Positions 2,455 to 64,000 of a stretch of 64,000 bases of DNA are shown here, piece by piece (within the stretch, counting starts at the first letter, position 1; each line of letters starts with the position of its first letter). The stretch comes from Harriotta raleighana. Its lineage: Eukaryota. The notes beneath the pieces were generated by a model. It ran no database searches. It saw only the letters and a list, made by a program, of their open reading frames with translations, and was not told the origin of the DNA. The stretch covers positions 825,726-889,725 of the forward strand of contig JBNZDD010013638.1 in NCBI GenBank assembly GCA_050575255.1. Direction: 5' to 3'. The position numbers were made by a program, and so were the translations under genes.

Positions 2455-2672
2455 TTGGGGGGAGAGAGAGAGGAGTGGACGAAGGAGTGGGCAACGGAAC
2501 GACAAAGGGGGAAGAGTGGCAGGGAGGGGGAACAGAGGTGAGAGGAAGGGGAAAGAGAGGGGCGTAGAGAAAACAGATGGGGGCTAGAGGGTGGAAAGAG
2601 AGAGAGAAACTAGAAGGGGTGGGAGAGAGGGGATAAAGATAGGAGAGAGGAGGGTGAGAGGGTGATGGTGGT
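2455..2672. repeat. GA-rich polypurine low-complexity tract
   Basis: About 200 nt almost entirely G/A. Confidence 0.8.
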
Positions 2673-3201
2673 TAGTGGAATCTCCTCGGAGTTGAACTGG
2701 ATCCAATGTAGTTTGCTCAGCAACAGAATGGTATAATCAATTCAACCCTCTGTTGTGGTCTTGTTAGTCCAGTTCCTGAGCCAGGCGAGTCTGCAGTATT
2801 ACATCCACCGCTGACAACAGTGTTTGGCTCATGAGGAACAGACTAGTCACTGTGGGCAGGGATTCTTTTCAGTCAGCTGTTAAGCTTGCAAGCCAAAGTC
2901 CTAATGGATAGTGTGGTTGTAGCTACATAAGCAGCAGGAAGCCTGCCAGATGTAGTGGGCAAGCTATGTGGTTTTAGCTGGTTAAACTCCAGCAGTACCC
3001 CCAAAGCCCTCTATGATCCCAAGCCTTGGTTTTTGCCAGTGTATGTGTATGCGTGATACATGTGCCAGACATCCAGGTGATGAAAATAAACTATACAAAT
3101 TCTATAATTCTTGGCATTTATGTGGCACAGATCATCAGGAAATCTATTGTTTTGTATGCTAAAGTTTTCATTTAAAATCTATTGTCCTTGCATTTTTTTC
3201 A

Positions 3202-4428
3202 AAGATATGACTAGCAGATTATATAGGGGGGAACAAGTGGTATATTTGGATTTTCAGAAGTCATTCAACAAGGTTCCATATGCAAGATTGTTACATAAGA
3301 TTGAGGCTCATGGAATTAATTGTAATACATTAGCATGGATTGAAAAGTAGTTAACAGGCAGAAAACAGAGAGTAGGGATAAGCAGGTCCTTCTCAGAATG
3401 TGACTAGTGGAGTACCACAAGGATCAGTGCTTGGGCCTTAACAGTTTACAATCTACATCAATGACTTAGATGAGGAAATAGAGTTTAATGTATCTAAGTT
3501 CACGGACGTTACAAAGCTAGCTAGGAAAGTAAGGAGGACACGAGAAGGATATAAAGGGATTTAGACAGGTTAAGTGAGTGGGCAACGAGATGGTAAATGG
3601 AGTATAATGTGGGGAAGTGTGAAGTTATTCACCTAAGTAGAAAAAATAGAAAAGCAGATTATTTTCTAGAGGGTGTTAGACTAGGTAGCTTTTGTATTCA
3701 GAGGAATTTAGGTGTCCTTGCAATCACAGAAAGTTAATAGCTAGAAAGCAGATACAGCAAGCAATTAGAAAGGCTAACAGCATGTTAGCGTTCATTGCAA
3801 AGGGGTTACAGTATAAGAGTAGGGAAGTCTTGCTGCAATTGTAGAGGGCTTTAGTGAGACTGCATCTAGAATATTTTGTGCAATTTTGGTCTCCTATCTA
3901 AGAAAGTATATACTGTACTCCCCTTAGAGGGGTTGTAAAGTAGATTCACTAAATTGGTTCCTGAGATGAGGGGGTTGACTTATGAGGAGAGGTTGAGTAA
4001 ACTAGGCCTATATTGTCTAGAATATAGAAGAATTAGAGGTGATCTTATAAAAACCTATAAGATTCTTAGGCCTTGACAGGGTAGGTATTGTGAGACTGTC
4101 TCCCCTGTTTGGAGAATCTAATACAAGGGGATCATAATCTCAGGATTAAAGGTCAGCCTTTTAGAAATGAGTTGAGGAAACATGTCTCCACTCAGAGATT
4201 AGTGAATTTATGGAATTCTCTACTCCAGAAGGCTGTGGATGATCAGTCATTGAACATATTCAAGACTGAGATCGATAGTTTTTTAAAAGTTAAAGGAATT
4301 AAAGGATATGGGGATAGGGTGGGTAAATGGAATTAGGATAGAAGAACAGCCATGATCTTATTAAATGGCGGGGAAGGCTCGAGGGGCCAAATGGCATCCT
4401 TCTGTTCCTACTTCTTAAATTCTTATGT
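3202..4428 (+). mobile_element. CR1 LINE, 5'-truncated, degenerate RT and 3' UTR
   Basis: Fragments VYLDFQKSFNKVP, SGVPQGSVLGP, LYINDLDE, RLVNLWNSL..KAV with stops and frameshifts; 3' end ttcttaaattcttatgt. Confidence 0.92.
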
Positions 4429-7400
4429 CCTTAGCTTTCCCCAAGTAATGAAGTTAGTGAAAGACACAGTGCAATAATGCATCAATTCTTTCCCTCATTC
4501 TGAAAAAATATATAAATAATTTGAAAACAATGTTATCAATTGGTTCAGTGCCAAAGTAGCCTTCTTGTTTAGAATGACAAATATCTTTGTCTTGAAAAGT
4601 CAAATTTGTATTCACCATTAAAATAATGAATAAATAAATCATATTCAGCTCATTGGCAACATAGACATAGATGTAAGTAAATTGTTCCACTGGCCTTTGT
4701 TGACATTTCATTAATTATTTGCAGCTCTGCATCCTTTTTATTCTATTTCCTTCCTTTTCCCTTCTCCTCCTCCTCCTCCTCCTCCTCCACAAGACCACAA
4801 AAGAAGTAGGGGTTAAGAAGATCCATTTGCCTATTTGATCTAATTCTTGCTTTATACCTACCCTACCATCTTCCAATTACAGCACCAAACTGCTTCTTTA
4901 AACAAGGATCTATCTGTGTCCTTTTAAAACACATCAATCAAATCTGAATCTATTGCCTTCTGGGGTAGTGTATTCCATATTCTCATAACTGTCTGTGTCA
5001 TTTCCATCCACAGATCTTGTTTAATTCATCCTGTCATTGGTTCTATTCCTTATTTCATCTCCCGAGGGAGATGACTAACATGGGTAAAACTTCCAAGGCA
5101 TTAAAGCTCCGTGAAATTTCTCATCAATCGCAAGTTAAAACTTGTTAAACCAGAGGACATTAATCAATCATTACCAATCTTATTTAATCCTAACTAGCTA
5201 TGTACAGTATTTATAGATGACAATTACAAGGTCCCATGTGAACAAATATGGTGTATTTGATGTGTTTGATCGATCATGTCCATATTAATTGTTTATAATC
5301 TTAAATCCCAATCTACAATGGATATTTATCCAAGAAAATGACAGATGCCCAGTTGCACGCTACTCTGTAAGAAATATATTGCTCTGCATTCATGTTTGAG
5401 ATCCGATAGAGTTATGTTAACATCTTCTCTTACTGTAATCAAAGTTAAAGAATTTGTTTAACCGACTAATCACAGCACTTGCCGTTATGGAAGTTTTCCC
5501 TCAATGAAAATAAGGCTGCTTTGGCTACCAATGAACCATTGTTTATTCTAGCATTGGGTTAGAGAGACCATGATGTTATGGACTTGTTCTAGATAAGTTG
5601 ATCTCAGTCAGAGAAGCAGTTTGGTTGTTGCAGTTGGTCTCAATGCTTGTGGATTCCACAGGGAAAAATCACCCATGGTGAGTGCTCCTGTCCAGAGACA
5701 TCTTTGTAGAAAGATATTTGCATCTTGATGTACGTTGAGACGAGGAAATGTTTATCCATTTAAACTCTACAGAATTGCTTCACAATCTTCATAAAGGTAT
5801 TCACCTGGCCACATTACTTGGTGAGAATTGTTTTTAATACAGTAAGAAATGCCCTCTTTTTTTTGTTAATTTGATAATTTGAAAAGCTGAGGACCTAGAA
5901 TAAAGAATCAGAGAGCTTTTCTGGTCCAGAAATGGCACTTCCTTTAAGCATAACACAGATTTTATTGTCACGTCAATTTCCAATTCAGCAAGCTAATCTG
6001 CTATTAGTCCCATGATGTTTAATCTTGTATAAAAGTTTAATTTGCAGAATTTTATCGAATGTTTTCTGAAAGTCTACGGAATTGCTCTTGTCTGCAAAAT
6101 TAGTTATGTCCAGTAGATTGCTTCTAAAATCAGCCTGACTGTTCCTTCCTGCTATCTAAATGATCATTGATCGTTTTGAGCATTTTCTTTATTGAACTGT
6201 TTCATTCCATTTCTGAATATTGGAATAACATTCATTATCTCTGAGTCTTCAGCAATGTCTCAGATCCTGCTGTGTTCTATGGAGCTCCTAAAAATATTAA
6301 CCAGATTCTTAGTGACTTAAATTCCTGAATTTTGTCTTCCACTGCCATCTTCAAAAATATTTTCCAGACTCGAAGGAGCTGGATTGTATTTTGCCACTCG
6401 TGCTCTGCGTTTATATTTAAATCTATACATTGTAATGATTAATGTAACTTGAATCAGCATGACACCTCTCCAATTCTCTAATGTTATGCTCTATTGATAA
6501 CCTTTCAGATTCTGTCTTCTGTTTCCACTTTACTGAAAAATAAATGATCCATCTTCTAATAAAAGCTTTGTATGTTTTGGGGATTATAATGCCACTATCT
6601 GTGAGAGCCAGATTGGTTTCAAAAAACTGAAATGTTTTTCTTATTCAGAAATGCCTTAATGTCCTCATCCTTCAAAAGAGGCAGCATCAAACAATACAAT
6701 GGATTTTGACACTTTTTCTTTTTCTGTCTGTTGAATATAAAAGGACAATGACGCAAAATAATAAAAATGTACATATCAAGGACTGAACCACCAGCTGCTC
6801 TGGAGAACTGAAAATTACAAATACTGTATGTTTCTGCTAGTTTGAACAAATCTATTGCTCTCTGACTTACTGCGAATATTGTACACTTGCCATGGTATTG
6901 TCCTTCCCCCAGTCACCCCACAAAATTATCCACTATTACTTAATGGTGTGAACTGACATAGGGTAGGGCATATGTAACAATTATCTTCAACCTGGTTCAA
7001 CCCCCGGAAGATACATATTACATTAGAATTTTTGATTTAAGAATAACACACAGCTGGTATGTCATTATTGCAAGCATAAATTTTATACAAATATTGACTA
7101 GTTAAGCACTGTAATGCTGCGATGATGGCTTGAAATTTTGAAAAGGAATAACTGACTGAACATTTCGTTTAGGCCTTATGCCAACAGCTGAACATATCAT
7201 TTGTAACATGAGGTTTTTTTTTAGCCAGCCATGTGTTTGAAACATGCAGAAACCCATCACCATGCTTAGCCATAGCCAAACATATCACCTTAATAACAAT
7301 AATAATTCTTGCATTTGGTAAAGCACCTTATCACACTGTTGAGATGTCTCAAAGCGCTTCACAGAATTTACTGTAAAATAGATTGACTATAAACACTCTA

Positions 7401-7691
7401 GGTGAAATGCAGCAGCCAATTGTGCACAGCCAGTTCAGCTCCAAGGAATACTCCATTTACTTCCGCTTCAAACATTGTAACCATGAGCGACAATGAGAGT
7501 CAATCAGAAATGCGTAGTGTGTAGGGGAAGCAGGGATAAGATTCCTTCCAGGAATTATCTTGAATCTATTTATCTGTCAGCCTGGTTCCGAGGTGAAAGG
7601 CGCTATACAAATGTGGATTTGTTGTTGTTGTTCAGTGAGAGCACCCTTGTCTCTGAGTCAGAAGGTAATGTGTTCAAACTCCATGTAGGTA

Positions 7692-8471
7692 CAGTAAAAG
7701 CCTGCTTATCAGTGTCCCGATGAACCGGAAGACCCGTATAACTGGCATGTCAAAAAAAAAATCCTCNTTCGATAAACCGGAAGACCAGTATAACTGGCAT
7801 GTCNGTTATCCGGCAGAATAGCAGTGGCGCATTTAATGAATCGATTGTCGCAAGCGAATACTGTGCAGGTATATTNGTTATCCGGCAGAATAGCAGTGGC
7901 ACATTTAATGAATCGATTGTCGCAAGCGAATACTGTGCAGGTATATTGAATGTCCGCTGGGGGAATCTGAAAATTGCACAGCTGTTTTTTTTTCTCCGTG
8001 GGGGCCGCCATTGCAGAAGTTAAGTATGAAAAATAAAGTATTAATACAATATTATGTTATTATAGTATCTGTTATTAGTGTACAGTATTTAGTCTATTAT
8101 TTATATTATTTATTGTAAATATTGCACAGTGTACAATCTTTACAATAAAGTACCCGTACAATATTCTGTTATTACAGTATCTGTTATTACTGTATTTAGT
8201 CTATTATTTATATGGTACAATGTACAACATTTACAATAAAATACACATACATTATTCTGTTGTTATCTGTTATTATTTAGTCTAGTATTAATATGGTATG
8301 TGTTAAAATAATTTTTTATTTTAAAAAAATGTTCAATTGGAAAGCCGTTTAACAGGCACTGGCCAGGTCCCGTGGGTGCCGGATAAACAACAACAATAAC
8401 AACAAAATTACACTTGTAAAGCGCTTTTCATGTCGGGAGGACGTCCCAAAGCGCTGAACAGGCTTTTACTG
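7692..8471. mobile_element. Non-autonomous Tc1/mariner (Tigger-like) DNA transposon / MITE
   Basis: TIRs cagtaaaagcctg...caggcttttactg, left flank TA; shares internal sequence (aatcgattgtcgca, cactggccaggtcccgtgggtgcc) with the inverted copy at 38285-38716. Confidence 0.8.
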
Positions 8472-11014
8472 CATTTGGAATTTATATAGTGTAAACTGAC
8501 ACATATAATCTATGTTTCTGCCAACAGGCCAACAAACCCTCAAATAAAATGAGTCATTCAATTCATGACTTTTTGTAGGATATTATTCTGTACACAAATT
8601 GGCTGCCACATACACATTGTGTATCCTGTGAAGTGCTTTGGAATGTCATCTTGATGTGAAAGGAGCTATTTCAAATGTAAGCGATATTATTATTATTATT
8701 ACTTATCATTGATTTGTTTCCTTTTGGGGGGGTCAGCCAGGTGTCAACCAGCCTCAGTTGGCAGCATTTTGATTCAAACCTCACATTGGGATTTTGAACT
8801 CAGGCTGGGCTGCTACTCAGTGCTTGGGAGTTAGCTTCATTTTTGGAATACCGTTCTTCAGATGAAACACCAAAACCGAGGTCCGATTTGACTGTTCAGA
8901 TGGAAGTTTCTACGCCTTTAATATCCCACAAACACATCTCTTTAACAACACTGTAAAGGAAAACTTTGCAGTCTTCGGGTTCTCCTCAAATCCTGTGTAC
9001 CATTTCATCTGTACCTTTGAAGCTGTTCCTCATAACTAATTGCAGCTTTTACACATTTTTACAAAAGAGAAAAGCCACTAAAGACCTTGACCCCATGATT
9101 CAATACATACTTTATCTAAAGATACAACAGAATTACATTTCTTTAACGCCTTTCACATCAGGAGGACATCCCAAGACACTAGACAGCTATATTAAAGATA
9201 ACTATGATAATCCACATTTGAGTGTGGAGTCCTATCAAATTATTATTATAACTTTCACTATGAAACACTTTAAACAAATTACCTGCCAATAAAAATATAA
9301 TATTGCTACATTTTGATAACATTCAGCTTTTAGTGTATCACTCAATAGTATATAAATAATATATACAGTAAAAATATTAATAAATATTTTTGACAAATAC
9401 TGATTTGTAATTCAGTAATGAAATATTAAATAATAGCAAATTAGAAACACTTACAGGTAGTAAATCATCAGTCAATTTAGATTTCTCCTCCAAATGCATA
9501 CAAGGCTTGGGACGTCCTCCTGACGTGAAAGGCGCTGCAAAGTGTAATTTTGTTGTTGTTGAGGCCCAACATGTCATCTAGTTTTAGCTGATGAGATTAT
9601 GTTGTTTTAAAATTTAGGATTGCTACAGAATTGATGAAAATGATTGAATCCAGTTTTGAATTGGAATCCAGTATTTCTACAATTCTTATAAAGAATTGGC
9701 TTCCGAATTAAGACTGAATTTAAGAATTTCTCACAATTCTACGTCATCTTAAATTTTAAGACTAAATAGCTTTATTGGCTAGGATAAGATGTAAATTTGG
9801 GCCAAAGATTACGTTATCTATCTCTCAATTTAATCATTTTACTGAAGCTTTGGTGTATCTCTGTTTCAAATTATTTATGAAATTCTGAGCAAGAAAGCGT
9901 AGGTAGGATTCCAAGTTTNCAAATTATTTATGAAATTCTGAGCAAGAAAGCGTAGGTAGGATTCTTTATTTTCTTTTGCTCTTGCTTTCCCTCATCTTCA
10001 AGCTCATTGCGATCTGTTTGTTCAGATATGTATTTGTGAGCAATGGGTTCTGGTATATTTTACAAAATATACAAACGCAAAAGTATTAGGCACTTAGGCA
10101 CATGATACCAACACAGCCTAATTCGTGCAGGTTTAACTTTGAGTGTCATGTCCACGCCCATAAATCAGGTTCGACATGGCAGCTCATAGGAAGAGCCAAG
10201 AAATGGTTAGCAAATTTAACTGGGATTTAGGATTATGGAACTGGCAGAACAGTCTTGGAGGGCTGAATGGTCTCAGACTGTGATTCTTTTCGTATGTTCC
10301 TAACCCTGAAAATTCCCCATCACAGGGTCCAAAATGCCAGAACCTTTTCTATTTAGTAGGGTAAAATGAAATGGACTAATATGTTAAAACTGGTGTGGCA
10401 CTGAAGGTCGAATAGTGAAGCGATCAGTTCTTGTCAAGAGTGAGTAGAACAATAGAAGATGTGAGTTGAGCTGCATTCAGAACTGAAGCCAGCCCTCAGA
10501 CACTATGTCCCTGCTTTTGGAACTCCCCACAAACCCTTTTGGCTTATGCCTTCTCTCCTGTAAAAATATATCTCTTTTATCATGTTTTTGGTCAACACCT
10601 CCCTTCCCTTTCCTCTGTTCAGTGATCTATTTGTCAAACAATTTGAGATATTCATTCTATATGAAAGGCATTATGTAAGTGCCAGCTCTTGTTAATTGAA
10701 TTGGAGCGAATTAGGATAATTCCGATTTAGCCTACTTTACCCCGTTTGAATGTTTTAAATTGGGGTTGAATATTAATTCCTCCTTTTTTTTCTATCTCAG
10801 CATGGATTGCCCTCAAAGCATGGCAAGGGAATGGTCACTATCAGTGTTGCACACTACATATAAAAAATAAACGCCTGGGTTAGAGCACGAAATGCGAGGT
10901 TTAAAGGACAGCTGGGAAATTAAAAAATAGATGTAAATACTGTATGTACTGTACTGTATGTATTGATTTCCCACGTTGTAAAATTGACAATCCCATCTGA
11001 TTGCTCTGAGAGTC

Positions 11015-38716: not shown

Positions 38717-41700
38717 TAATAATCATTGCATTTCATATTGAATCTTTCAATCAGGGGGACATCTCAAGCGCTTTACCATTATATTGTAAAGTGGAGTGAA
38801 TGCATTACGCAGAAGAATACGGCAGTTGCAAACAACATTGTCCCACAAAGAGTCATGAAGCGAATGGACAATTTTGTTTTGGGGATTGATGGTCAGATTG
38901 ATGTCCCTTAAGTAAATTCCATGTAGCACTTTCAAAAACTGCTATTTTCTGTTTTTTTTAGCATTGGTTCAACTCAACCAAAAAAAACTGTGAAAAGTCA
39001 ATATGTTGTTAATTGGTACATCCAGTGCAGTGAGCTGGCTTTGAGCAATCGTGATGGATCACTCGATGTGTTCAGTCATTGCCTGACCATGTTGGGTACA
39101 TGTTTGAATGATGAATTAACAGCCGTGTTAACTGATTCACAGAGCTTGACAACAGTGATGCACAATTCCAAGTAGGACATAAGCTTCCTTCTATAAATCA
39201 GAGCAGCTTCGGAAATATTATTAATTCCCATTATAAATATACTGGAGTAGATTTATAAGAAGTTTATGATATTGTCTTTGCCGTCTACTTCAATAGAAAT
39301 CAATCTAAGGAGCTTATTGTTATGGTTTGTCCTATATATCAGAAGTAAGAATAGGAAACATAAGTACTTCATGGGTGGGGTTGAACTTGCCAAAGAGAAG
39401 CTAACTGAGGTCTATGGATGTTAGTTGACTCAATGCTCATCATGTCAAAATAGCAAAGAACACGATAAATAAGATCCTGGGCTGTGTGGCCAGTTCAGGT
39501 TGAGTTAAGATACCCAGATATCATACTCAGGGGGTATAATGTTCTGGTCAGGCCATACTTACAGTGCTCCGTATAGTTCTGGAGTTCCCAACTACATAAA
39601 TGCCCTATCTGTAGTGTGGAGAGGAGTATAAAGACTAACCTTGAGGAATGAATTATGATCTGGGCCAATCGAAAAGTGCAGAAATATTTGCGATACATCG
39701 CAGGGCATTTGACAACAATTGCGGAGAATTTGTCAAGTCCTCGCACCACTTCCGCGATTCTGACACACAGCAAGCATGTTCCGTGCCCAATCGCAGCGAT
39801 GAGCAAACACAGCAAGAGGCCCGAGCCCTAGCACACTTTGTGTACAGGTTTATAGCGTTTATGTAGCGGAGGGAGGAATTTGTAGCAGATTCTGTGGAAA
39901 AAGTGCAGCCACACAAACTATGACCAACGATTATTGAAGCTACGCTGCATGAGGACACAATATCAATGCAGATTGTTGTTGTTGTATTTCAGGATTCTGG
40001 AACAAATGCTCGGCCATCTAGGAGCTATTGTGATGACTGTGTCATGCCCATTAGCGCCTAATTGAGATCGACAGTTTCAATTGAAGAGAAGGAAAATCAT
40101 AGGCTCCATTCCAACAAAGGGATTATATGAGAATTTGCATGTATGTTTAAGGAGTGTGATTATGAAGGTTTTATGTTATCTGTCAAAACAAATCCATTAC
40201 TAAACTTCCAACTTGATGGAATACTTGTAATAAATTGGGAAACCTGTCACTTGAATCTGCATACCTCAAGAAAATAAACAATTTAACAAGCACAAAGGCA
40301 ATTGAATGCTATAATAATAATCCGTGCATTCGATATAGCACCTTATCACATTATTGAGATCTCTCAAAGTGTTTCACAGTATATTCTGTAAAGTGGATTG
40401 ATTGTGTATTCTGTGTCTGAAATATAGAGGCCACAGCAGTGTCCCACAAACAGTCATGAATTGAGTGACCAAATTATTATGTGGCAGAGGTGAGGGTGGC
40501 GGATTATTACACCTGGAGAGTGATGTTGAGAACTGCAACTCAACATCTTTATATTTATTATTGGGAAGTTATGTCAAAGGTGAGATAACACCTGCAGTCA
40601 ATAATATTTCTGAGGCAGCTCTACTTTATAGAAGGAAGTTTATGACCATACAATTTTTGGTGAATTCTCTTAAGTCCTATTTGGAATGATGGTCCAGGTG
40701 CAACATTTTACAAATGTTATTTTTACTGGTGAGTGCCCAGTACTCACAGTTGTTAACTGCTTAGAAATATCTCCCAGATATCTCTATCTTATAAACCTTC
40801 GTTCAGTGTTTCAGCACCTTGGGACGTCCTCCCAACGTGAAAGGCGCTCTACAAATCTAATTTATTTTCTTCTTTTGTTGTTGTTTGGCTTCTTTTTCTA
40901 GTACAACCTTCTTTGCTTCTAAGGTTTCTTCCTGCTACAGGAATGTATTTATCGCTTATTTCCTTCAGATTCCTGTCACTTCACTCCTTCGGTTTGTGAG
41001 GCCTCAGAAAAGACAGAATCCAGAACATTCTCTGAATATCTTTTGCCTTGACAGCCTAGAGCCATGTAGTTAGGCATTTTGTTTTGAACTGCGTTGTTTC
41101 CATATGTCAATCATTTAAACTCCAAGTGGACTGCTTTCAGATCACAGTCTATTTCCAAGGATTCCGTCTCTAGTTTGAAATTAACATGGATACCCACGGT
41201 ACCTCAGGAACCTGCGTGAAATTCTACCAAAATCCTTTGAGTGGAAAATAATTGAACTTGGGGGACAAAAACAAAACACTCTTAAACATCCTGTGCTTCG
41301 ATGACAATGCGAATATCGCTAATGCGTAATTGAGGTTTTGAGAGAAAATTATAAATGGAAATTTGCAGACATCCTAGTTTGCATTTATATATAGTGACTT
41401 TCACCGCTCTGAGCAGGAAATCTTTCCTACTCAGCTCCTGTTAACTCTGGAAGCCAAAGCCATAATGCCTAGGGTTGTTCTAAACTGGTCAACCAGCTGC
41501 AAGCTTGTCAGGCAATGCTCACCGTGCTCAGCAGCCATGTGGTTTTAACTGAATGCATTCCTGCAGGACCTCAATGCAATTTTAGGGACCCCAAGGCTTG
41601 GCTCTCACCAACCAGGGCCAAACATTCCCTGGAATTAGGTAAGCATGGTGAGTCGCTTCAGGGAATGTTCCATTCCAGATTAATTTCCATGCCTAGATGG

Positions 41701-54603: not shown

Positions 54604-54828
54604 TCAATCAGCTTTCTTCGTCTTTCGTTTTCGGACATCAGTTTCATCAGAAGTAGCACCTGAGGAAGCAGTACATTGATCATCCAATGCATCCCCTTTG
54701 TCACAAGGTTTGGGTGTATTAAAACGTGGGTCAACAGAATATGATTGCCAACTAAATGCCATATTGTACAAAGCAGCTTCCATTGGTGCAAAGGGAGAAT
54801 GTTGAATGTGGAAGAGTACCATGGCAAC
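54604..54828 (-). CDS. TMEM38B: TMEM38B last coding exon, ending at TGA
   Basis: Acceptor tttgttttttag|GTT (phase 0); encodes VAMVLFHIQHSPFAPMEAALYNMAFSWQ...DVRKRKTKKAD*, with the FAPxE..L..M.F.WQ motif and a basic C-terminal KKxx tail. Confidence 0.9.
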   Translation of the reverse strand, partial: VAMVLFHIQHSPFAPMEAALYNMAFSWQSYSVDPRFNTPKPCDKGDALDDQCTASSGATSDETDVRKRKTKKAD

Positions 54829-55840: not shown

Positions 55841-57511
55841 TTACAGAGTGACAACACCCATATGCGGAGCATCATTAAGAAACTACAAAGGTACAAAGGC
55901 ACATTCTAATGTTGGTCGAGAAAAGTAACGTTTCTCATTCACCTTTGCTACAACATAGGCAACTCAGTCATATGCTTCAGAGAGCGGTGCTATTCTGCAA
56001 GAGTGCTTTGTTCTCCTCATATCTGCAGAAACCCATCATCATGCTTAGGAGTATTCAAACCAGTCAGATCCAAACCAGTCAGAGTTCCAGATGTATGCCA
56101 CCTACACAAAGAAGTTTATCTGGGGTGGAATGCACACTCTTTCCCTGCGAGAACACACTGATTATCTAATTCTGGAAATTGTTAGGAATAGTCTGCCAAG
56201 AGCTATGTCCTGGGGAACCCAAGGGCATAATTTAGGTTATTTAACCAGCTAAAATCACCTATCCGTTAGTGTTTTTGGGTGTAGGCTTGGCTTTACTGTG
56301 TAATCTTTGGACGTACCCCTGATGTGAAAGGTACAATATAAATATAATTTGTTGTCGTAGTGGTGATAACAGGAGCTGAACTGGAAGAGTTCCTGCCAGT
56401 TAACCATATAAAGTCATGTATTTTTTCTGAACACATAAAATCCTACATCTTTACATACATCTATTTTCCACATTAGATTGCTCAGGTAGTGGATATAAGA
56501 TTAAAAGTGTTACACTGATTGAAAAATAAACTACTGACCATTCCAGAGGAAAATAATACACTAGTGCTTAATTCACTGCCTCATTAAAATGCTTCTTTAA
56601 TAAGTAAAATTATAAACTGTGTGTTGACCAACTTGAACTGAATTAAAAAGAATCAGGATGGAAGAATCACAATTTTCAATAGTAACTAATCTTTTTTAAA
56701 TTTAAAAACAACACTTTTTTGAAGGCTGAAACACAATTGCTACTACTAACTATACAAATCTCAAAGGGAATTATTTCTAAAGCAATCCATATGTGAAAAC
56801 AGGTGAAAATGAACTGGAAAAATCATATGTGCTCTGATACTAAAGTCTTCCAATATTATGATATGTGATCTGATAAAGTTCAAAGGGAGATGAAATTCAT
56901 TCGGTGTCTTATTATTTCAATATTCAAAATGTCAAAAGTAGTTTGAGTCAGAGTGGCAAATCAATTTTCTGAGGCAGAATCGTCTTTCTCATTGGAGGGT
57001 ATAATTAGATGGATTTCCAAGACTGAGAACTCAAAAAATAAAATTGTGTCACGTCTGCTATCAAGCTATCAGTACGATTTCCAATATGTACAATATGATT
57101 TTTGAAATCAAAGGGATACAGAAGAAAAATATGCAGCCCCATTGGAAGAGGCAAAACAGTTAATAGTGATTTTATCAAAAAAAAATTGAAATGCCATTCT
57201 AAGTGAGATTATATCTGACATTTTGGAATTTGAGAATAATACGGCACTGAATTGGTTATATTGACCACTCTTCTTTTTAAGAAGACTCTTCCCTAAATGT
57301 AACCTATCAGCAACTTACCATGTGTCTTGTACACACAAAGTCTTAGTAAAACTCCTATAGAACAAATCGGCCTTGGTTACAAGAGCAACCAGTTATTAAA
57401 TAGATGTGTAACAAATCCAAACAAGCCAAAAAAATACAAGCAGGAATAAGTCTTTATAATTTCCTTGAGCCTTAAAACTCAGTAACTGCAGGCAAATGTA
57501 AGCTTGAATCT

Positions 57512-58329: not shown

Positions 58330-59082
58330 TAGAAGGGGAGAGACTAGATAGTGTTAGCATTCAGAGGGACTTGGGTGTCCTTGTACCAGGAATCAAATGC
58401 AAGGATTATTATTACTATTACAGCAAGCAATTAGGAAAGCTAACAGTATGTTGGCGTTCGTTACAAAAGGATTAGAATATAAGAGTAGGAAAATCTTACA
58501 GCAACTGTATAGGGCCCTGGTGATACCGAACCTAGAATATTCTGTGCAGAATTGGTCTCCTTGTTTAAGAAAGCAAGCACTTGCCTTGTACAACGTAGAT
58601 TCACTGGGTTGGTACCTGGGATGAGGGGGATGAGTTATGAGGATAGGTTGAGCAATCTAGGCCTATATTCTCTAGAATATAGAAGAATCAGAGGTGATCT
58701 TATAGAAACCTATAAGATTATTAAGGGGCATGACAAGAGTAGATAGTGGGAAACTATTTCCCCTGTTTGGAGAAACTATAACCAGGGGTCACAGTCTTCA
58801 AATTAGGCATCAGCCCTTTCGCACTGAGTTGAGGAAAAACTTCTTCACTCAGAGGCTAGTGAATTTATGGAATTCTCCACCCCAAACGTCTGAAGAGGCT
58901 CAGTCCTTGACCATATTCAAGACGGAGATTGATAGATTTCTTGTGGATAAAGGGATTAAGGGATATGGGGATTAGGATGATAGGTGGAGTTAGAATAGAA
59001 GATCAGCCATGATTTTATTGAATGGCGGGGCAGGTTCGAGGGGCTGAATGGCCTACTCCTGATTCTTATATTCTTATGTTCT
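58330..59082 (+). mobile_element. CR1 LINE 3' fragment (intronic, antisense to TMEM38B)
   Basis: ORFs 58397, 58552 and 58730 form successive frameshifted CR1 C-terminal pieces; tail ttcttatattcttatgttc. Confidence 0.92.
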
Positions 59083-59765
59083 AATAGTTGCCTGAATTAG
59101 GGTAACAGGATACATCCTTCCAGGGAGAGAGTTCACATTCCATTCCAATAAATATCACTGGAATTTCCATGTGTACATAATTATTTGGAACTCTGTTTGG
59201 TTATTCTCAAGCCTGGTGACAAGTTTCCACATATGTCAGACACCCAGCTGACCAAAAAAAAGATTTTTCTTCAGACTTTTCAGTGGAACAGTAGACATTA
59301 AACTGTTTTACTTATTTTATTATAAGTAAGTTATTTATGGCTTCCAGACATACTGGCGACCAATGGAAATTTGGCAGAATAATTTTCTTGTCATGTACCA
59401 GTTTTCTTTAATTGATTTTTTCCCCATAACATCTTCCTTTCCTTTATTTTCTAGTTGCCGCTCTATGCTAGTCTCTAATTCTTTAAAAAAAACTTTTTCC
59501 ATGAATTATAGTTTGCCTCTCATTCCCTGTTGTATTATATTTCACATTCAGCAATTTGAAAAAAAAACAGGGTTCATTCAAAATCAACTTTATTTTAATG
59601 GAGGGAAAAAAGCTATTTCATTTATTTTAAACCTTATTGCAGGCTTTCTATACCCAGAAAAACACAATAAAGTCAGAAAATGCACTCCAATTTATATTCT
59701 ATAATCTCATAATTACCACACAACTGGAAATATTATAGATATATATCTTAAAGAGATTTGCTTAC

Positions 59766-59883
59766 CTTTGTGGAAACTACAAACATAGTGTACAAAAAGA
59801 TGAGGTTGTGTCTAGTCAACGGTAGGTAATTCATTTCTTGTAACGTAAAGAGTACAGCTCCAATTAAAGATACTTTTGTTGCA
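59766..59883 (-). CDS. TMEM38B: TMEM38B coding exon (118 nt, equivalent to exon 5)
   Basis: Acceptor ttcttcttatag|T, donor AAG|gtaagc; encodes (Y)ATKVSLIGAVLFTLQEMNYLPLTRHNLIFLYTMFVVSTK (within ORF 59748..59939), like TMEM38B AKVTLLGSVIFTFQ...KHNLMFLYTIFIVATK. Confidence 0.92.
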
Positions 59884-60312
59884 CTATAAGAAGAAATTGC
59901 ATAAATTAATACATATTTAAACAATAGTCCAATAAACATATCTATCGAATGACCAATGATCCAGATATAATATAAATTGTGTTAATTTTAGCCAAGAGAA
60001 ACCTGGTACATGACAAGAATATTATTCTGCCAAATTTCCATTGGTCGCCAGCATGTCTGGAAGCCATAAATAATTATGATTGTTGCATTTGGAAGGGATA
60101 AATAATGCTAAATGTTGTCTTTCATGACTGGAACACACTTCCAGAGATTTTAAAAAAAAACAAGAGTTCAAATAAAAATGAAATGTTTTGTTTCAAATGT
60201 AAATAAAATGACAGTAGAGGTCCATTCCAGTGATTTTTTCATGTCAGTGTTTCCTCCTCCAAAAAGCTATCCATTCTAATCCAAATTCTCTACTCTTTCC
60301 CCATACTCCTTA

Positions 60313-60990
60313 ACAACAACAAAATTACATTTATAGAGCGCCTTTCATTTCGGGTGAACATCTCAAAGCGCTGAATAGTCATGGGGAGGGGCAGGGTAGG
60401 GGAAGAGTGGTAGAAGGCACGATCGAAAAGGAGACCAGTCACGAGGGAGGCAAGGGGGGAAGCGAGGCAAAGGGATTGTGGGACAAAGTTCCAGAGTGTG
60501 GTAGCAGAGTGGATTGAAATCACCAATTTATTATAGGGTTTTTTTGAACAGATTATTATTAGGCATGTGGACTAAAGAAACTTGCCCAAGGTTTCGCCCT
60601 GTCGGAAACTGAACCCAGGTGTCACACTTGTGAGGTGAGTGCTCTAACTACTGAGCTACAGGACTCCAAATGGTATGGATGATGGGAGCAAGGACAGTTG
60701 AAGGTAGAGCCTAGGATCCTTATTGGTTTGGTGAGATGCAGTATGTTGGAGAGGTTAATGGGGTCTGAGAATAAAGTGGCAAGAAGGGAGGTAAGGGAGC
60801 TGGGAGGTAAGTAGAGGGATAGGGTTAAAGTCGAGGGAGCATGTAGACTTCATGCATGTTATAGTGGTGGTGAGAGAGGAGGGGGAGATAGGTCTGAATG
60901 TGTGGAAGGTGTAGCGATCAGAGCTTGAGGGAGAGATGGGGAGATCGGGAAGATGGAGGCTGCGGAATGGATTCCCTCGATATTGGTTTC
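60313..60990 (-). mobile_element. L2 3' end (60313-60510), SINE 5' half (60510-60667) and an older purine-rich LINE-like piece
   Basis: L2 tail and ATTLWNFVPQSLCLAS joined to a SINE head. Confidence 0.7.
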
Positions 60991-62757: not shown

Positions 62758-62845
62758 TAGGGCATTTTCAGCAACTGATTTTTCTCAGGCATCCAGACAC
62801 CCCTGACCAGTTGCTCAAAGTTAGACAGCAATCCAGAACCTGCAC
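62758..62845 (-). CDS. TMEM38B: TMEM38B coding exon (88 nt, equivalent to exon 4)
   Basis: Acceptor ttctgtttccacag|GT, donor TA|gtatgt; encodes (G)AGSGLLSNFEQLVRGVWMPEKNQLLKMP(Y), the TRIC-family NFEQLxRGVW motif; phases match both neighbouring exons. Not in the ORF track. Confidence 0.92.
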
Positions 62846-63904
62846 CTGTGGAAACAGAAGTTTTGCAATCAACAAACTATAATAAATGTGTAACTTTTTC
62901 TTACAAATTATCACTTCACGTGCTGCTGTAAAAATAGTAAAACAGACACAGAATAGTAAAACTCATATAACCCTTACCTTTATAAATCATATAATCACCC
63001 AAGTCGTACATGAGCCAGAATCCCACCCAGTTTCCTTTCAAAACCATTTAGATTTATTTGCACTAGTCGTATGAATAATTTCCTAACTCGCAACTCTGCT
63101 CCCCGTTACTCCAGCACTTACTAGCTGCATTCAATCATAGGAAACGATATTCTGACCTGCCAACACATGCACACATACTAATCGGCTGCATTGAATTGGG
63201 GGAATTGTAGTCTTCATCCATCAACACGTGTTGAAGAACTTTGTTTCCCACAATTCACCCCAATTCCAATAAGTGTGCAAGTGGTGACAAGTCAAAACTA
63301 CATTTCCTGTAATTTAATGCAGTCGCATGCACGCTTACCTGCTGTAGTGACAAAGAACCCCAGGCATTTACCAGCTGCAATCAATGCACAGTGTAATTAT
63401 TGATTAAATCTTATTTTATACGAATCATACAAATTTGGTATAACACAAGCTTTATTACATATTTATATGGTCCTGAATCATACGACTTGTGAGTTTTACT
63501 GTATTTATTTTTTATAAAAAGCAAAAATTCTTATTTTTTTATCTTAACTTCATTTGAAGATTATTATTCAAACTATAATTGTGTTTGGTCATGCAAGGAA
63601 TCTGCAGCCTGCCCTTACTTTGATACTAAGACCATTAGAGGAATGCCTCAATTCTGATCATCTGCCATTGTCATCTTCAAGCCCCAACTACCATCCTATT
63701 CCCAGGAAGAATGGGTGGCCCAAATGTGGCTCATACGTTTAGCTTAAGTGTACTCCCAATTTACCAAATTGAATAATCCTCTTACCTTCAGCTCATCAAA
63801 TAACATGGTGATCATTTTCCAATATGTAAACTTGCAAAAACATGTCTCAATATATTAAAAAACACTGGATGCAATTTACATCCTCAAGTAAAAAGTCCTC
63901 TTAC

Positions 63905-64000
63905 CTTTAGCCCATCCAACAGCTATCATGGCAAGCCACCCATTTCTGTAGCGGCTGTGTGCCTCCATCACACCTCCAACTATTTTGCGGGCCCTGGTTA
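63905..64000 (-). CDS. TMEM38B: TRIC-B cation channel coding exon (equivalent to human exon 3; 5' part lies outside the window)
   Basis: Minus strand reads TRARKIVGGVMEAHSRYRNGWLAMIAVGWAK-G, resembling recalled TMEM38B TRTWKIVGGVTHANSYYKNGWIVMIAIGWARG; ends at an AAG|gtaaga donor (phase 1). Confidence 0.9.

Follow-up and report, generated by a model that had tools for sequence, protein, structure and literature searches.

An inverted repeat around exon 5 of TMEM38B in Harriotta raleighana: a probable repair-mediated local duplication

In Harriotta raleighana, a near-perfect inverted repeat lies in the two introns that flank a single coding exon of TMEM38B. The question is whether this arrangement is an RNA-structure switch, as the original prediction proposed, or the trace of a mutational event. 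We analysed a window of 64,000 nucleotides (contig JBNZDD010013638.1, positions 825,726 to 889,725 of the forward strand), together with the rest of the assembly. The arms are likely a template and its copy, left by a single short local duplication that probably arose when a break in intron 5 was repaired by copying intron 4, and they appear to have been decaying since then without selection.

TMEM38B and the repeat around its exon 5

TMEM38B is encoded on the minus strand and specifies a 298-aa TRIC-B protein of the TRIC family (PF05197), with both a TRIC domain and TRIC-B as its best match. Exons 3 and 5 scored above the cut-off of the PF05197 profile and exon 4 slightly below it. The protein is identical to Callorhinchus milii TRIC-B at 285 of 298 residues and to five shark and ray proteins at 230-246 residues. 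The splice sites of exons 4-6 are canonical (AG/GT), and the introns around exon 5 measure 2.9 and 4.9 kb. The features considered here, in the order of transcription, are the following:

63905..64000, minus strand: 3' part of TMEM38B exon 3 (185 nt in total, running past the window end)
62758..62845, minus strand: TMEM38B exon 4 (88 nt; its final two bases open a Tyr codon)
59997..60073, no strand assigned: intron-4 arm, the 5' arm in the transcript and the likely template (donor)
59766..59883, minus strand: TMEM38B exon 5 (118 nt, within the 589-nt loop; PF05197 positions 148-186 of 193)
59331..59407, no strand assigned: intron-5 arm, the 3' arm in the transcript and the likely inserted copy (acceptor)
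59308..59329, no strand assigned: perfect hairpin of 8 bp immediately outside the intron-5 arm, seen in the fold and in the junction sequence
54604..54828, minus strand: coding part of TMEM38B exon 6 (last coding exon; Val codon first, KKAD-stop last)

When recomputed, the arms were reverse complements of each other at 74 of 77 positions, the figure first reported, with a gap of 589 nt that holds the whole of exon 5. Their edges are sharp, with identity falling to background at either side. On the minus-strand transcript, one of the three mismatches is the G-U pair already described, and the other two break pairing. The layout, an inverted pair in both introns flanking one exon, is that of TBXT, with one arm 113 nt upstream of the exon-5 acceptor and the other 358 nt downstream of its donor, close to the earlier estimates of about 115 and 360 nt. 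The usual branch-point zone lies ~18-40 nt before an acceptor; thus, the arms cover neither a splice site nor this zone. The hairpin next to the intron-5 arm is possibly a scar of repair synthesis, or else a chance feature of AT-rich DNA.

Repeat-derived inverted pairs are common (193 in 1.43 Mb), which would suit an origin of the arms from a short transposon that inserted twice by chance, or from a DNA transposon of which they are the terminal repeats. The original prediction had seen no further copy of the arm in the window, and this extends to the whole 1.10-Gb assembly, in which a genome-wide DNA search returned two arm matches, both at the TMEM38B locus, and a 23-mer search allowing up to 2 mismatches also returned two, against none for a control pattern. 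By these searches the arm is neither a member of a multicopy family nor the high-copy repeat that the prediction had raised as an objection to itself, and an Rfam search of positions 59000-60400 gave no match at E up to 1. Between the intron-5 arm and exon 5 the intron is single copy, and the enclosed exon is TMEM38B's own. The junction sequences of the arms hold no poly(A/T) tail or other mark of retroposition; the copied DNA is intronic and its junctions are tail-free. A transposon origin is thus close to refuted, and we give it almost no credence. A high-copy repeat, represented by thousands of reads, occupies positions 59095-59261 and ends 70 nt from the intron-5 arm; similar sequence occurs in the opposite orientation near 56000-56250.

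An assembly artefact, which the prediction had also considered in the form of a single true arm, is equally hard to credit. Nearby exact tandem copies that resemble artefacts, together with a tangled exon 1, speak for it, but the arms differ at three positions, and raw DNA reads extend over both arms and their flanks (runs X14 and X15, at a low depth of ~1-4 and possibly from the same individual as the assembly), which makes a pure assembly error unlikely. One of 3157 X14 reads was placeable at two sites.

Further along the contig, exon 1 of TMEM38B (approximately G000:C13638:916590-917290) is present three times, in part or in whole, around Ns within low-complexity sequence, which looks like a local misassembly. 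Positions 889000-1089000 of G000:C13638 contain exact or near-exact tandem copies one base apart, of up to 5,467 nt at 99.9%, which are typical of scaffolding artefacts.

The exon 4-6 junction and the predicted duplex

Skipping of exon 5 would create the junction TA|G and, as first computed, a stop in the last coding exon, with a 184-aa product that lacks the KKAD end. This product would lose PF05197 from position 148 of 193, that is, the last quarter of the TRIC domain. In an AlphaFold model of the Callorhinchus protein, which was poor (19-row alignment, mean pLDDT 41), helices at 185-201, 207-229 and 238-249 lie in the region that skipping would delete, a hint of what might be lost; a hydropathy profile gave three segments only.

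The original prediction took this stop as a sign of a switch. The split codon, however, is Tyr in 13 of 19 aligned homologues, including all six chondrichthyans, and exon 6 opens with Val or Ile in all 19; therefore, if exon borders are taken as conserved, skipping yields TA|R (TAG or TAA) wherever the Tyr is kept. The paralogue TMEM38A has Phe at the split codon, which gives TT|G on skipping. Even without the Tyr, the shifted frame would run for 98 residues and then meet a stop within exon 6. Since the 118-nt exon shifts the frame and a stop in exon 6 follows regardless, any skip of exon 5 would escape junction-dependent NMD, provided that exon 6 is the last exon. Judged from the aligned sequences, the stop at the skip junction is ancestral and unlinked to the repeat, and offers no clue to a switch.

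The stable arm pairing that had been proposed is borne out as a prediction. In an 843-nt region folded as minus-strand RNA, the arms were paired with z = -11.5, and none of 20 shuffled sequences was equally stable; the predicted energy of the duplex alone is -129 kcal/mol, and its longest unbroken run is 53 bp, counting G-U. Stems above ~50 perfect pairs affected splicing in vivo (Solnick and Lee, as cited in the available part of PMC2275289), and the 53 unbroken pairs reach this reported level, which counts against a purely neutral reading. In the sections at hand of PMC10901737, exon skipping in mouse Tbxt is induced by reverse-complement non-Alu inserts of 220-297 bp; according to the accessible text of PMC8052449, inclusion is lower for exons that stable pairs loop out, and A-to-I editing is frequent in stable complementary pairs. 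By analogy with the engineered inverted repeats in Tbxt, the duplex could cause some skipping of exon 5. Among titles and abstract openings of the literature on TMEM38B exon skipping we found none on structure-driven skipping of exon 5.

The duplex might nevertheless be selected, whatever its origin, as a device that loops out exon 5 and yields an NMD-escaping 184-aa TRIC-B, which would lower the channel dose or join trimers. The energy of the duplex, its 53 unbroken pairs, the skipping caused by the Tbxt inserts and the lower inclusion of looped-out exons all speak for such a switch. In prokaryotic TRIC the pore and the trimer contacts come mainly from TM1, 2, 4 and 5 (PMC5143425, in part). 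The 184-aa product may retain these segments. Against a selected switch, the stop is an ancestral feature with no dependence on the repeat, the arms are short, with a length right at the threshold, two of their three differences break pairs with none compensatory, and by the coordinates the duplex removes just 743 of the 7,929 nt between the exon-4 donor and the exon-6 acceptor. Exon 5 is, moreover, kept in all 16 homologues considered, of 26 found. Loss of TRIC-B is a disease state in humans, and a patient deletion in TMEM38B is described in PMC4956114, from the portion of that paper available. Taken with the comparison below, this makes a selected switch unlikely.

It is still more doubtful that the pair serves to promote back-splicing of exon 5 and so to make a 118-nt circRNA. 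Complementary regions are enriched outside circRNAs (PMC8052449, available sections), which would suit such a role. Single-exon circles, however, come from long exons (medians of 169-253 nt against 121 nt for ordinary exons), and the typical flanking introns are very long (both from the accessible part of PMC6376117), whereas exon 5 measures 118 nt between introns of 2.9 and 4.9 kb. Rolling translation of an exon-5 circle would meet stops, with no endless frame.

Comparison with a relative

Reads from 4 of 16 listed runs were used, and from these one relative, organism B (run X5), was compared; it is ~93% alike in introns. An organism B contig matching positions 59957-60217 is colinear with the window from the loop through the intron-4 arm, and an inversion at that edge is thereby excluded. 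With the exon-5 splice sites on the gene strand, this rules out the staggered-break inversion that the original prediction had already thought unlikely.

The intron-4 arm differs from organism B at no fewer than 5 of 77 positions (at least 5, a lower bound), and the flanking intron at 40 of 534 among the differences listed (Fisher p = 1). Exon 5 shows 4 differences in 118 nt among those listed, three of them synonymous, and by this sequence comparison is under coding constraint. Conservation or compensatory change in the arms, which the prediction had led one to look for, did not appear: the intron-4 arm is no more conserved than its flanks in this one relative, a point against the selected switch, and there is no compensatory change among the three arm differences. 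The pattern of PCCRs, with both arms in conserved introns and compensatory changes, was thus not found in this comparison, which has low power with one relative. The arms offer 77 positions and the intervals are wide (2-15% for 5/77 and 1-11% for 3/77), so that moderate constraint or a duplication predating the split remains compatible with the counts.

The organism B contigs cover positions 59413-60290 and none lies on the intron-5 arm, a coverage gap that is not proof of absence. At position 60002, organism B shares the base kept in the intron-5 arm, which would follow from a change in the template after it had been copied. These sequence data suggest that the intron-5 arm is a lineage-specific copy made after the split from organism B.

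The alternative is that the pair is older and chimaera-wide, and that gene conversion, or selection for pairing (with the pair acting, for example, as an ADAR substrate or an RNA bridge), has maintained the similarity of its arms. The organism B contig over the intron-4 arm has a depth of 115, against 36-72 for its neighbours, a value that collapsed copies could give; together with a contig end near the intron-5 arm, this could mean two near-identical arms. The absence of the intron-5 arm is also made less certain by 74 unplaced letters of the neighbouring organism B contig 14 (ahead of the aligned part or within a joint). On the other hand, a repeated 77-mer would normally break the contigs of a de Bruijn assembly, and the organism B contig crosses both edges of the intron-4 arm unbroken. 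The arm also diverges at the intronic rate and has no Rfam match at E up to 1. We hold an older pair to be about as improbable as a selected switch.

Two-copy local pairs and the origin of the repeat

Whether such a pair is exceptional was judged from a census of 1,826,658 non-N bases in 8 blocks from 4 contigs, a sample that is not random, as one 463-kb block is centred on the locus. Local pairs of at least 40 nt, with at least 80% identity and a gap of 100-3000 nt, numbered 539. After a third-copy test within the 1.83-Mb sample on 76 new candidates and 15 earlier two-copy pairs, 23 were without a third copy in the sample, namely 10 inverted pairs, the TMEM38B pair included, and 13 direct pairs. 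The two orientations were similar in number (9 other inverted against 13 direct, binomial p = 0.52) and in median gap (541 nt for inverted and 452 nt for direct pairs, Mann-Whitney p = 0.56). When searched genome-wide, five of the nine other inverted pairs had two full-length copies only (5/5), and one of the 13 direct pairs had two full-length copies and 12 short end matches. Direct pairs, which cannot base-pair, match the inverted ones in frequency and spacing, an indication that the origin is mutational. The proposal that the layout in itself marks an RNA-structure switch is not supported by this comparison.

The exon-5 pair is among the most perfect of the 10 inverted pairs, and is the sole one seen to enclose an exon. 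The other inverted pairs include one of 101 nt at 94% and the following three:

L004:4114-4327 and 4873-5078 (past the window end), inverted: pair in intron 1 of TMEM38B, 214 nt at 86%, with a 545-nt loop
L173:207-461 and 1036-1290 (G000:C13724), inverted: 255-nt pair at 98%, with two full-length copies genome-wide
39175-39222 and 40600-40647 of the window, inverted: 48-nt pair at 85%, with a 1377-nt loop and no third copy in 1.83 Mb

The intron-1 pair forms a stronger duplex than the exon-5 pair (-245 kcal/mol) and has no exon inside its loop; the 574-nt loop of the 255-nt pair is a fragment of a LINE reverse transcriptase, and the loop of the 48-nt pair has no Pfam match. None of the nine other loops gave a host Pfam match in 113 stop-free stretches (one LINE reverse-transcriptase match; exon 5 was found as a control), in a test that misses short, non-coding and domain-free exons and for which ~0.6 enclosing loops are expected at 7%. 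The paralogue TMEM38A (G000:C13680:994900-999700, L106) has no two-copy inverted pair around its exon 5; its exon layout is the same as that of TMEM38B, with much shorter introns.

Extrapolation gives ~5,400 inverted two-copy pairs per genome (95% CI 2,500-10,300). Assuming 170,000 internal exons, about 7% of the pairs, or ~380 per genome, would enclose an exon by chance, and ~130 would do so at 70 nt or more and 90% identity or more, before any purging. The resulting base rate of ~5 inverted two-copy pairs per Mb can serve to judge other cases of a unique inverted repeat around an exon, hundreds of which are expected per genome by chance.

The two copies, the sharp edges, the 589-nt spacing, a class found in both orientations and the absence of extra conservation in the arm form the basis of the repair-duplication reading. 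A DNA break would have arisen in intron 5, and repair synthesis would have taken the opposite strand of intron 4, ~600 nt distant, as its template, so that 77 nt of intron 4 were inserted into intron 5 in reverse orientation. The event would date very roughly to half the age of the split from organism B, from 3/77 against 7.5%, values whose intervals overlap. The arms are predicted to pair in the pre-mRNA while leaving the splice sites uncovered, so that exon 5 would mostly be included, with some degree of skipping, or of A-to-I editing in the introns, tolerated as a side effect.

Repair-mediated duplications (RDs) were described by Pace et al. (2009; PMC2671141), whose available sections give them as sequences of 50-619 bp in two copies only, with a donor less than 5 kb away, without a poly(A) tail, often intronic and with a divergence that fits neutral decay. 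The arms share several of these properties: they exceed 50 bp, have exactly one other genomic copy, are spaced within the range of 50 bp to 5 kb and show no mark of retroposition. Their divergence is compatible with neutral decay, within wide intervals. An RD in opposite orientation is named there (ACSBG2 exon 7), the 'doublets' of Thomas et al. are cited as a related class, and the survey, which found RDs in mammals, chicken and zebrafish, has cartilaginous fishes outside its range as far as those sections go. The definition of RDs required that the copy interrupt an annotated transposon and that an outgroup retain the empty site, with microhomology, filler or deletion, whereas the TMEM38B pair is classed without these. 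Their reported density is 0.08-0.65 per Mb of transposon DNA, against ~12 pairs per Mb here under looser criteria. The TMEM38B pair is probably an ordinary, neutral member of this known class, and extends the record of short local duplications in vertebrates to cartilaginous fishes.

The closest likeness in layout is with the AluSx1-AluY pair of TBXT and the insRCS of mouse Tbxt (PMC10901737, sections at hand), in which a lineage-specific insertion makes an inverted pair with nearby intron sequence around one coding exon, as is suggested here. The insRCS is a non-transposon reverse-complement copy of the other intron, a layout that the TMEM38B pair shares. The arms differ in size (220-300 bp in Tbxt against 77 nt), and skipping in Tbxt is in frame and was shown by deletion and knock-in, whereas that in TMEM38B would shift the frame and is predicted from sequence alone. 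The PCCRs of PMC8052449, as its accessible part presents them, likewise involve long-range intronic pairing around an exon with an energy far below -30 kcal/mol, like the TMEM38B pair, the class most enriched for A-to-I editing. In contrast, PCCRs sit in conserved intronic regions, whereas in the one relative compared the intron-4 arm has diverged like the intron around it.

If skipping of exon 5 were shown, the locus would provide a naturally occurring example of the Tbxt mechanism that involves no transposon, and in a gene whose loss leads to osteogenesis imperfecta in humans; it would also allow a direct test of how repair duplications affect splicing. By analogy, there is a slim chance, slightly below that of a selected switch, that this young transposon-free repair scar acts as a natural insRCS, causing appreciable skipping and an NMD-escaping 184-aa TRIC-B that dampens the trimeric channel. 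In that case, inverted repair duplications, of which hundreds per genome lie around exons, would be a general, transposon-independent source of new isoforms. Titles and abstract openings yielded no paper on the pair at the TMEM38B locus.

A decayed direct copy of the end of exon 3, including its GT donor, was also observed in the window (63757-63800 against 63872-63919). It lies 119 nt into intron 3, would read into a stop if used as a cryptic donor, and is probably another local duplication.
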